Of a DNA stretch of 64,000 nucleotides, positions 19,527 through 22,304 are shown in pieces (position 1 is the stretch's first letter; the number at the start of each line of letters is the position of its first letter). Below the pieces are notes generated by a model. The model was not told where the DNA came from. It saw nothing but the letters and a program-made list of their open reading frames with translations, and searched no databases. The stretch lies in the IMG/VR virus record IMGVR_UViG_3300009177_000032, positions 1-64,000 of that record; one strand, written 5' to 3'. The position numbers and the translations under genes are program-made. The DNA comes from a virus.

Positions 19527-19766
19527 TCAGTCGGTTGGGTTCACTCCGTAAATTATGGAGGGGTTGAATTTACGGGAGCAGCCAAACGGTCTGCCGATCA
19601 GGGTTGAAATGGTTTGGCAGGTGCTGCACGGGCGCTCGCTCCATTGGTGAGGGTCGGCCTCTATCAGTTCTAGCGCGGTTTGGCACATTAAGCGAGCGGC
19701 AGCGCGTATTGTAGATTCAAGGACCTTCTCGCTTTCCAGCGACGGGGAGTGATTCTCGTTTGCCAT
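19527..19766 (-). CDS. Cassette ORF 4 (MANENH start), CxxC protein
   Basis: 79 aa; DPHQWSERPCSTC. Confidence 0.7.
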   Translation of the reverse strand: MANENHSPSLESEKVLESTIRAAARLMCQTALELIEADPHQWSERPCSTCQTISTLIGRPFGCSRKFNPSIIYGVNPTD

Positions 19767-19773
19767 AGGTCAG

Positions 19774-20136
19774 TCAGGTGGCGAGCGCGGTGCAGGCTAT
19801 CTTTCTAACTTCCGTTAATCTCGCTCGCAAATCAACCAGACCAAACACTCGAAACGCTGCATCGTCGTTTCCGAGTTGGTCGCATTGCCTCAGAGCCTCA
19901 GCGAGTCGCTCACAGAACACACAGGAAAATTGTTCGCAGCCTTGCGCCACATGCTCATTGTCAACTGGTGGTGCTTTTGTGGGATCATGGCGTCCTGCGA
20001 TCTTCTGACGTATTTCCTCAATGCCATTCCAGAGGTCTCGCCAGTCCTCAACCGTCCAGTCTTTAGCATCTATCGGGATTTTGGATTTCATCTCTTTGAT
20101 CGTGCAAAATTGGTTGAATTGTTCCGATTCACTCAT
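19774..20136 (-). CDS. Hypothetical protein coupled behind a 15-aa MANENQ peptide
   Basis: ATG overlaps TGA of MANENQPPLRKNCYS (20133..20180). Confidence 0.55.
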   Translation of the reverse strand: MSESEQFNQFCTIKEMKSKIPIDAKDWTVEDWRDLWNGIEEIRQKIAGRHDPTKAPPVDNEHVAQGCEQFSCVFCERLAEALRQCDQLGNDDAAFRVFGLVDLRARLTEVRKIACTALAT

Positions 20137-20188
20137 GAGTAGCAATTCTTTCTTAGAGGGGGTTGATTCTCGTTTGCCATAGGTTTAG

Positions 20189-20443
20189 TCAGTTGATAAT
20201 AACGTAGGCGTCCAGCCATTCGAGCGGTGGATCGCCTTCAAAATTCACCCGGCCATCTATGGAAAGCGTGGCAATTTCAGGACACTGAAGGTCCTTGTTA
20301 TCATCACAGGCGGGGCCGAGTATCGCCTCTCTCGTTGCTTTAGCGCGGTCCGCCAGATTGTCGAACACTCGGATGACGGGACTGCCTCCCGCTTCGGCGT
20401 GTTCAATTAGGACGTATTTCAGGGGGTGATTCTCGTTTGCCAT
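20189..20443 (-). CDS. Cassette ORF 2 (MANENH start), hypothetical
   Basis: 84 aa. Confidence 0.7.
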   Translation of the reverse strand: MANENHPLKYVLIEHAEAGGSPVIRVFDNLADRAKATREAILGPACDDNKDLQCPEIATLSIDGRVNFEGDPPLEWLDAYVIIN

Positions 20444-20450
20444 AGGTCAG

Positions 20451-20705
20451 TCAGTCCTTTCCACCAGCCGCATGAAACTCGTTCCACCATGTATTCAATC
20501 GGCAGCTCAGGTTTCCCACTTCTCCATTGGTGATATCAATACTCTCGCGCAACGGGGCTAGAATTTTTTCCGCTGATCGCAATTCAACGCGCCATGTCTC
20601 TAGGCGTTTTTCAGCGTCTTTTTTTCGGGCAATAAGTTCCTGCAACGTGTCACCGTTACGGCAGGCGAAAGTGTTTTTATTCGGGGGTTTATTCTCGTTT
20701 GCCAT
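20451..20705 (-). CDS. Cassette ORF 1 (MANENK start), coiled-coil hypothetical
   Basis: 84 aa. Confidence 0.7.
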   Translation of the reverse strand: MANENKPPNKNTFACRNGDTLQELIARKKDAEKRLETWRVELRSAEKILAPLRESIDITNGEVGNLSCRLNTWWNEFHAAGGKD

Positions 20706-20707
20706 AA

Positions 20708-21181
20708 TTAAAACGGAGGTGGCCCCGTTACAGTCGCTCTATTGTTATCGTTGCCCCCTCTTGACCGGGAGCGCACAGCTCGCTTTTTACTACCAGTTCC
20801 CGGAAGGAGGTCCAACAATCGTCGCACGGCAGTAACGTAGCAATCCGCGAGCGTGGACAAGCAGCCATCCGGATCTCGACGCCGATAGTCTGAAAAACGG
20901 AGCGTAATTGTGACTCGATAAGGGATATAGCCTTTTTCATCCACTCCATGTGCTCCGGCAGCGTGATCGGCCTGGCCATCGCTTTTAGGCCCCGCTTGCG
21001 ATACCAGATCTCCCCTTTGTAGGCCATCACTGTGGCGCTCTTGCTGTCGATCCACGCAAACGCCCGCTTGCCCGTCTTGAAGGATGGGATCGGGCCGATG
21101 CCCTTTAGCTCGAGGATGATTGGGGGCATAGGGCACTCCGTCGATCCAAACAATTCCGCTTGTGTCTTTGTCATAGGGCAT
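20708..21181 (-). CDS. Overlapping ORF, frame B, carrying RusA-like catalytic segment
   Basis: YRVTITLRFSDYRRRDPDGCLSTLADC; ATG 3 nt after upstream stop, stop 2 nt before next ATG. Confidence 0.5.
   Translation of the reverse strand: MPYDKDTSGIVWIDGVPYAPNHPRAKGHRPDPILQDGQAGVCVDRQQERHSDGLQRGDLVSQAGPKSDGQADHAAGAHGVDEKGYIPYRVTITLRFSDYRRRDPDGCLSTLADCYVTAVRRLLDLLPGTGSKKRAVRSRSRGGNDNNRATVTGPPPF
20728..21174 (-). CDS. RusA-like resolvase, frame A (N-terminus and DD/C-terminal strands)
   Basis: ELKGIGPIPSFK...PCDDCW..ELVVK...GATITIERL. Confidence 0.6.
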   Translation of the reverse strand: MTKTQAELFGSTECPMPPIILELKGIGPIPSFKTGKRAFAWIDSKSATVMAYKGEIWYRKRGLKAMARPITLPEHMEWMKKAISLIESQLRSVFQTIGVEIRMAACPRSRIATLLPCDDCWTSFRELVVKSELCAPGQEGATITIERL

Positions 21182-21184
21182 GGC

Positions 21185-21778
21185 TTAACCTGCGCCCATG
21201 GCCCTCAAGCCGGACTCATAGGCAGTTTTGAGCTTAATGAATTCCTCGTGCGTCCCGCCAGCGTCAGGGTGAAGCCTTTTCGAGAGCTGCCGGTAAGACT
21301 CCTGCAGTGTCGTGATGTTGATCTCGTTTGGGTCCCGAAAGCCGAACACCTTCCACCACTCCCGCACCTCCGGCGCAGTCGCCCCGGCCGGCAACTGCTT
21401 AAACCCGGTGAACATCGCCTTGATCATGTGCTTGGCTCCCCATCGTTCCATCCCGCGCATTGCCTCGACCGTCAACGCTATTGCCTGGATGTTGTGAGCG
21501 ATTCTGTTCCAGCGGTCGCAAGGGATGGCCATTTGCGTATTGTCCCACTCGAAGTAGGCGCAAACGCCCGGATCTTTCGGGTTGTCCTGGCCGAGCGCGG
21601 CATTGCTCGAGAGCACGATGCTTTTCGCGCCCATGCGTGCGAGCTCGCGCTTGAGGTTATTGAGGGCGCCTTGAGTGTCCGTCTTGAAGCTGCCCGATTC
21701 CCTGCGGAACGGGTCAGTCTTTGGCCAGCCCGGAGGCCATGCTAGAGGATAGGCGGTCGGTGTTTGGATCGTGCTCAT
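21185..21778 (-). CDS. Phage J-domain protein
   Basis: YPLAWPPGWP N-terminus; C-terminal WWKVFG..YRQLSKRLHPDAGG. Confidence 0.88.
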   Translation of the reverse strand: MSTIQTPTAYPLAWPPGWPKTDPFRRESGSFKTDTQGALNNLKRELARMGAKSIVLSSNAALGQDNPKDPGVCAYFEWDNTQMAIPCDRWNRIAHNIQAIALTVEAMRGMERWGAKHMIKAMFTGFKQLPAGATAPEVREWWKVFGFRDPNEINITTLQESYRQLSKRLHPDAGGTHEEFIKLKTAYESGLRAMGAG

Positions 21779-22304
21779 TGGGATGGTAGTTAGTTATGCG
21801 AAAACTGAGTTTCCGCCCGTTCCTGTAACCGTAAGGATAGAAGGCCACACCCAACGCCTTTACCAGCGTCAGATCGTTTTGCGGTACGTCGAGGACTACA
21901 TAGAGGTGATCGCCTTTGTCCTCGTAAACGACCTTGATAAGCCGGTCGTAAATGAGATTCAGGAATTCACGTATCATCGTCGTGAGCTCTCCGCCGCCTT
22001 CCCATTGCCGGTTTGGCTGAAATGGTTTTCGCTCTGGCTCTGCCTCGCCGCGGAAACTCTCTCGAATCTCGACCTTGACCTCGATGCCAATTCGCCGGCC
22101 CATGCGCTCGGCTACCTGGCGGATCGCCATGATGGTTTTGCCCTGCTTACCGATCATGATTCTCAGGTCCTGGGTTTCGGGCTCGACTGTGACCTCGAGG
22201 AGGTTCGTCGCGAAACGCTCTTTGAAGTTGATCCTATCGGGAGTCGACGAGTAAGACCGGAACAGGGAGATAAGAACCTTCGTTATCGGGTGTTTTTCGT
22301 GCAT
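21714..22304 (-). CDS. KH-domain RNA-binding protein (KhpA-like)
   Basis: EVTVEP..DLRIMIGKQGKTIMAIR with intact GxxG loop. Confidence 0.75.
   Translation of the reverse strand: MHEKHPITKVLISLFRSYSSTPDRINFKERFATNLLEVTVEPETQDLRIMIGKQGKTIMAIRQVAERMGRRIGIEVKVEIRESFRGEAEPERKPFQPNRQWEGGGELTTMIREFLNLIYDRLIKVVYEDKGDHLYVVLDVPQNDLTLVKALGVAFYPYGYRNGRKLSFRITNYHPNEHDPNTDRLSSSMASGLAKD

Follow-up and report, generated by a model that had tools for sequence, protein, structure and literature searches.

Two reading frames of the same strand, overlapping almost entirely and both open throughout, almost certainly both code for protein at one locus of a phage genome, and this dual-frame coding can be regarded as established by comparative evidence. 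The locus lies in a window of 64,000 nucleotides (the whole stretch of DNA that was analysed), and the record from which it comes holds a complete phage genome of 78.7 kb. The common view of overlapping genes is that they give rise to new proteins with no relationship to each other; in this locus the pieces of a single ancient fold appear to be divided between the two frames, and the arrangement is stable over deep divergence. The best reading of these data, which leans modestly towards the probable, is that the two co-encoded products, chain A and chain B, complement each other into a RusA-like nuclease. A fuller form of the statement, whose chances stand about even, is that a single enzyme domain is frame-interleaved over 470 nt, each chain being disordered where the other is folded, and that it would yield an obligate heteromeric RusA-like Holliday junction resolvase kept by hundreds of phage lineages, no member of which is known in a single-frame form. 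A preliminary description of the locus had proposed a RusA-like enzyme split over two fully overlapping frames, and this proposal is supported by the joint conservation of A and B in 46 loci.

Layout of the locus and parts of the two chains

Open reading frame A encodes 148 aa and open reading frame B, which lies in the −1 frame relative to A, encodes 157 aa; the intervals given in Table 1 include the TAA stop in both cases, and the overlap is near total (approximately 445 of 474 nt). As had been described before, both frames are open, their ATGs are 7 nt apart and B abuts both of its neighbours: its ATG is found 3 nt past the TAA of an upstream J-domain-like gene (21185–21187), so that the start of B is coupled to the stop of that gene, and its own TAA (20708–20710) lies 2 nt ahead of the ATG of the next gene (20705). 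It was also confirmed that frame A contains the motifs PSFKTGK, LPCDD and EGATITIERL and has no DxD, and that the RRRDxDG stretch is found at the collinear position in frame B, where the sequence reads YRVTITLRFSDYRRRDPDG..TLADC.

Table 1. Coordinates of the features of the locus in the window; residue numbers are preceded by the letter of their chain.
Feature	Position	Strand	Remarks
Gene A	20728..21174	minus	38 full-length homologues at 40–88% identity; 173 with the hybrid profile
A N-domain (A16–A92)	20899..21129	minus	strand β1, P30-S-F-K33-x-x-K36 loop, β-hairpin insertion, helix W78-M79..Q89-L90
A linker (A93–A113)	20836..20898	minus	open but unconstrained in A; low-confidence part of the A model
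A C-domain (A114–A148)	20731..20835	minus	L-P116-x-D118-D119, then terminal strands ending G137-x-E-G-A-T-I-T-I-E-R-L
Gene B	20708..21181	minus	B-type ORFs called as genes in at least 403 clusters at 50% identity
B N-terminal motif (B1–B20; ..SGIVWIDGVPY..)	21122..21181	minus	conserved motifs in relatives
B linker (B21–B85)	20927..21121	minus	unconstrained in B, yet without stops
B core (B86–B122)	20816..20926	minus	strand YRVTITLRF, S97-D98-x-R-R-R-D103-x-D105-G106 loop, helix with T110, D113 and C114
B basic tail (B123–B157)	20711..20815	minus	ends PPF (20711–20719)
Putative metal-binding acidic residues, from both frames	20818..20875	minus	alignment to RusA D70, D72 and D90/D91; B D103 20873–20875, B D105 20867–20869, A D118 20821–20823, A D119 20818–20820

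The likelier start of A is the ATG at 21129 (M16), which has a GGAG 8–11 nt upstream, and it is in this M16 version that gene finders call frame A (P0001, 133 aa). The ATG belonging to A itself is conserved and, in the short forms, immediately precedes β1. None of the 38 full-length homologues of A carries a Pfam domain. The residues conserved in frame A are G27, P30, F32, K33, N34, K36, W78, M79, Q89 and L90, and, in its C-terminal part, P116, D118, D119, G137, E139, G140 and A141. Frame A is widespread by itself, and this fact, taken alone, would have suggested that B is a by-product.

All 17 members that were inspected among the 403 B-type clusters are indeed of the B type. Relatives carry N-terminal motifs of three types (MPxWTxxEFxxY, FPNASxSFxxRN and DEL..GYV..GxW), and the core follows the consensus [YF]R[VI]x[IV]x[LFW]xxSDxRRRDxDGxL[SE]TxxDC in every fetched locus, down to approximately 30% A identity. 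The residues conserved in frame B are S97, D98, R100–102, D103, D105, G106, T110, D113 and C114. In the subfamily of the window the tail of B ends in (V/I/L)PF-stop, 20–29 nt beyond the stop of A, and among relatives the V, P and F codons and the stop codon vary synonymously. With an ATG of its own, conserved N-terminal motifs and this end outside A, B has the look of a complete gene.

Further upstream of the J-domain-like gene, a KH-domain gene and a DnaB helicase gene are found. In 25 of 56 loci the gene immediately upstream is that of DnaB, and the KH and J-domain genes intervene in some. Phage resolvases are usually found in such replication-gene surroundings. As listed, the KH-domain ORF (21714–22304) and the J-domain-like ORF (21185–21778) share 65 nt (21714–21778, minus strand), and the true start of the J-domain gene may be farther downstream than listed. 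Downstream of the locus (19527–20706, minus strand) there is a run of small consecutive genes, all of which start with MANEN(H/K) and have near-identical start junctions.

Selection and openness in both frames

Related loci were fetched from viral and metagenome contigs, 18 of them (14 distinct sequences) and then 37 more, and 46 non-redundant loci were used. Over A1–92 and A114–148 the most variable codon position of these loci is the third base of A, while over A94–113 it is the second base of A, that is, the wobble base of B. Frame A is therefore the constrained frame in the A N-domain (PSFKxxK, WM..QL), where the wobble is at A position 3, and in the C-terminal part of A (LPxDD, EGATITIERL), and frame B is the constrained frame in the B core. 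The mean pairwise identity of A and B, respectively, is 0.45 and 0.24 in the N-terminal part, 0.32 and 0.61 in the middle (which includes the A linker), and 0.41 and 0.19 in the C-terminal part, and the identity of the third frame is at background throughout. On this comparison of loci, purifying selection on both frames is demonstrated. The constraint on A and on B coincides at junction 1 (A Q89/L90 over the B strand) and again at junction 2 (A P116-DD over B A118-x-R-R), and this overlap at both junctions rules out a single reading path as the source of the constraint. A single-frame member holding all the elements was found neither among the 173 A-type matches (29 inspected and 37 near ones) nor among the 17 inspected of the 403 B-type clusters.

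Another way of looking at the two frames is to ask how often each of them should be closed by chance outside its constrained part. The third frame of the homologues has 4–14 stops. For the other two, the expectation was obtained in 15 loci by shuffling synonymous codons while the protein (or core) of the opposite frame was held fixed. With A fixed, 0.8–3 stops per sequence are expected in B over the N-terminal part and none is observed in any of the 15 loci (product of P(0), 2e-16), the stop-free stretch of B in this part spanning 48–92 codons in all 15; in the same shuffle, the stops of the +1 frame are as chance predicts. With the B core fixed, 0.8–2.5 stops are expected in A over the middle and none is observed in the 15 loci (product of P, 1.4e-12). 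By this measure the openness of both frames is forced, and the locus exhibits what distinguishes a same-strand overlapping pair, namely purifying selection and openness kept in both frames. Codon choice in A points in the same direction. The Phe codon of A F32 is TTC in 39 of 40 cases, which avoids a TAA in B, given that TTT-AAR would create one, and the Asp codon of A D118 is GAC in 45 of 45, which avoids a TGA in B just past junction 2, given that GAT-GAY would create one.

Of 47 distinct sequences, 46 have no stop in the N-terminal part of B. In the exception, L052 (1380–1815), there are two B stops upstream of the core, one of which is made by a TTT Phe codon of A; the core is intact, an in-frame ATG (MDG..) precedes it and the gene directly follows dnaB. 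Translation of the B core of this locus would depend on an internal start (MDG..) or on a frameshift. A second unusual member is P0108 (165 aa, NCBI source, contig of 5,239 nt), in which an N-motif of the FPNATAS type is in frame with the A N-domain, not with B; it is the only member of the family seen with that N-motif in the frame of A, and its arrangement also fits a single-chain product. Apart from the upstream stops of L052, B stays open in the homologues and its RRRDxDG core is kept, the loss of either being what the preliminary description had named as a reason to abandon its proposal.

Likeness to E. coli RusA

The Pfam family RusA (PF05866, gathering score 22.8 bits) matches neither A, nor B, nor three A-B-A read-throughs, and it has no match in the six frames of the whole genome. 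Frame B weakly matches phrog_34, annotated as “RusA-like Holliday junction resolvase”, as do three of six B-type proteins from other samples (E 5e-4 to 2.5e-3); taken together, the weak matches to phrog_34 range from E 5e-4 to 0.035. The B core is the sole match of phrog_34 in the whole 78.7 kb of the phage genome, and a search of the rest of this genome revealed no RusA, RuvC or endonuclease VII. When both frames were compared by tblastn with 50,697 phage records, no match was obtained, and a scan of genome contigs found no relative.

By hhalign, the B core aligns to residues 54–89 of E. coli RusA (probability 82%, E 1e-5) and the A C-domain to residues 90–120, while A alone against RusA reaches a probability of only 0.2%. 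For 12 loci, A-B-A read-through sequences were constructed via four-letter steps, and their profile aligns with the RusA alignment over 69 columns (probability 52%, E 1.5e-4). Among 177,635 PDB sequences the best match of the read-through profile is E. coli RusA (E 0.078), in an alignment that pairs RRRD-x-D and DD with RusA D70, D72 and D90/91; with the A-only profile, RusA is not among the matches. Collinearity of the two frames with RusA is thus demonstrated at the level of alignment. The lack of a PF05866 match and the remoteness of the likeness are the reasons for which the locus is called here a remote relative of RusA and not a member of PF05866.

By alignment only, the equivalents of the RusA triad are spread over the two chains: D70 corresponds to B D103 (97% conserved), D72 to B D105 (84%), and D90/D91 to A D118 (97%) and A D119 (100%). 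The catalytic residues D70, D72 and D91 invoked in the preliminary description consequently have aligned equivalents, with the reservation that the equivalent of D72 is missing in approximately 16% of members. Its observation that the equivalents of N73 and K76 are substituted proved correct, the two positions of the DLDNLQK motif of RusA being taken by G106 (97%) and S/E/A109.

Structural models were also obtained. The AF2 model of A, built with 123 sequences, has a pLDDT of 79, with values of approximately 90 in both flanks, including the A N-domain, and of 52–67 in A91–120. Out of 48,161 chains, the best structural match of this A-only model (rank 1) is RusA 1q8r_A, a weak match whose Z of 3.6 differs by no more than 1 from that of unrelated rows (Z was 3.5 for an earlier model of A), with an rmsd of 3.7 Å over 79 residues, model residues 17–148 falling on residues 1–118 of the chain, collinearly over its whole length. 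Foldseek of the A model against the PDB gave no match at E ≤ 0.001. When A(16–148) was docked with a B core of 42 residues, an ipSAE of 0.59 was obtained (0.59, 0.65 and 0.59 in separate runs, with at least 81% of contacts in common and a partner pLDDT of at least 71), the best of three controls reaching 0.01. The docking mark is attained by 58 of 80 solved complexes and by 2 of 110 mismatched pairs. Only 7 of the 80 solved complexes, together with both mismatches that passed, attain it with a score no higher than 0.60, so that the docking verdict counts as weak support. Furthermore, the RusA fold is already solved, and the docking pass may therefore reflect likeness of fold and not binding. 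Fragments of the ESM Atlas (IMS_C) that reached 0.91–0.93 for the B core alone were taken as noise, the part having only 46 residues.

Seen as a whole, E. coli RusA (PDB 1Q8R; PF05866) and the product of this locus have the same order of elements: a first strand with a P-x-S/K loop, a long helix, a strand, the RRRD-x-D acidic loop, a helix with a conserved Asp, the DD loop and a terminal hairpin. They are similar in size, and both are encoded in a phage replication or nin-type module. The differences, besides the unmatched PF05866 HMM and the substitutions already described, are an extra β-hairpin insertion in A, extra N- and C-terminal motifs on B and the distribution of the fold elements over two reading frames: RusA is a homodimer made from one polypeptide, whereas no examined locus or protein has all the elements in one frame.

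Proposed mechanism, rival explanations and known systems

Of the three mechanisms considered in the preliminary description, a two-chain enzyme from one locus fits best. One stretch of DNA would be translated into two proteins whose reading registers differ by one nucleotide. Chain A would give the first strand, the PSFKxxK loop and the long helix and, past an unconstrained linker of 21 residues, the LPxDD loop and the C-terminal strands. Chain B would begin a few codons upstream with a short conserved motif, continue with approximately 65 unconstrained residues, then give the central strand, the SDxRRRDxDG acidic loop and the following helix, and close with a basic tail and the (V/I/L)PF tip. 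The B core would slot between the two halves of A and complete a RusA-like α/β fold, with a putative active site formed by B D103 and D105 together with A D118 and D119. If the RusA homodimer is taken as a model, the heteromer would be A2B2, and it would cut Holliday junctions or branched DNA in a phage replication/recombination module beside DnaB. We infer that A and B are both produced, that the two chains associate and that together they form a junction nuclease. It would be unusual for a fold to be completed by an insert of 37 residues whose chain has approximately 65 disordered residues on one flank and 35 on the other.

The notion that A and B are two overlapping genes with separate functions and no joint fold appears unlikely, although it deserves serious consideration. 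According to it, A would be derived from RusA and have a degenerate centre, and B, small and basic, would bind DNA or act in regulation and would have preserved an old motif. Alternating constraint of this sort is usual in overlapping viral gene pairs, B has terminal motifs and a basic tail of its own, and the support from docking is weak. Nevertheless, the piece of RusA that A lacks is precisely the one to which the B core is homologous, at the collinear place and spacing; this piece consists of a buried strand and an active-site loop, which are unlikely to fold alone; the model of A is confident only outside the gap; and acidic residues are conserved in both chains. An assembly artefact, or a defunct RusA gene carrying two frameshifts that compensate each other, its former frame being still uneroded, would be conceivable if one sequence were viewed alone. 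In the set of relatives its probability becomes negligible, given that an identical architecture is found in 46 non-redundant loci from many metagenomes, down to approximately 30% identity, that the substitutions of the middle segment are synonymous in B, and that B D113 (100%) and B D103, G106 and T110 (95–97%) are conserved. This pattern of conservation across the 46 loci excludes both a sequencing artefact and a decaying relic; independent assemblies rule out indel errors, and the relic of compensating frameshifts suggested in the preliminary description is rejected, the middle evolving with the wobble of frame B.

A single-chain RusA-like enzyme produced by recoding, with programmed shifts from A to B (−1) near A85–93 and from B to A (+1) near A114–116, and perhaps with an extra initial shift from B to A after the B N-motif, is decidedly improbable. 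It would account for the narrow junctions at which the constrained segments, complementary to one another and in the order of RusA, adjoin, for the N-motif of P0108 in frame with the A N-domain, and for the core kept by L052 although B is closed upstream; the cases of P0108 and L052 keep this rival in consideration. Against this, a canonical X_XXY_YYZ heptamer near junction 1 occurs in no more than 3 of 46 loci, a frequency equal to the background, junction 2 has neither a stop nor a conserved shift-prone motif, and the window contains no tRNA gene that could serve as a frameshift suppressor. In addition, A and B are kept open far from the junctions and past both of them, TGA is avoided in B just past junction 2, the VPF end of B is under protein-level selection, and the constraint of the two frames overlaps at both junctions. 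The double programmed frameshift that had been put forward earlier is thus disfavoured. As particular sites, a slip at ATG-AAA-AAG (A79–81) and one at GTT-TTT-CAG (A93–95) of the window were considered and discarded, neither run being conserved.

No description of such a frame-split fold was found in the literature that was searched in full text, where the nearest concepts are overprinting (PMC8227390) and out-of-frame remodelling (PMC8788219). In overprinted virus genes, such as those of Microviridae or lambda Rz/Rz1, the second protein is a de novo, unrelated product (PMC8227390). The present locus resembles them in having two same-strand frames under purifying selection, with the strong constraint of one frame lying over the weak part of the other, and differs from them in that its two products carry complementary pieces of one known fold. 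Programmed ribosomal frameshifting, as in dnaX, lambda G/GT and the IS3 transposases, involves one shift and a conserved slippery site, after which the zero frame ends (PMC10885494); there, as here, the information for one functional unit is held in two frames of one locus, but this locus has no conserved site, it would require two or three shifts and its frames are open throughout. In genes remodelled out of frame, the segment concerned has given up its ancestral frame (Watson et al., 2021; PMC8788219). These genes also have an internal segment read in a non-ancestral frame, short and disordered like the A linker, whereas in the present case the ancestral frame is under strong selection and open from its own start codon.

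Under either mechanism, fold complementation by co-encoded chains or multiple frameshifts without signals, the locus would represent a new way of encoding a protein. The size of the family is at least 403 clusters at 50% identity. Standard annotation calls one frame and labels it “hypothetical protein”, which makes a whole family of resolvases invisible to HMM-based annotation, and the wobble-phase test used here could reveal further cases.

Two minor observations concern chain B. The near-invariant W78-M79 of A (TGG ATG) imposes xTG-GAT on frame B (20927–20938 and the equivalent positions), and this xTG is usually GTG or ATG, that is, a potential internal start 5–6 codons ahead of the B strand in most loci. 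The C-terminal tip of bacterial SSB (..DDDIPF) recruits many genome-maintenance proteins. The (V/I/L)PF-COOH end of chain B, often preceded by acidic residues and also present in L001–L007, P0263, P0361, P0377 and P0400, resembles this tip and could be a docking peptide.
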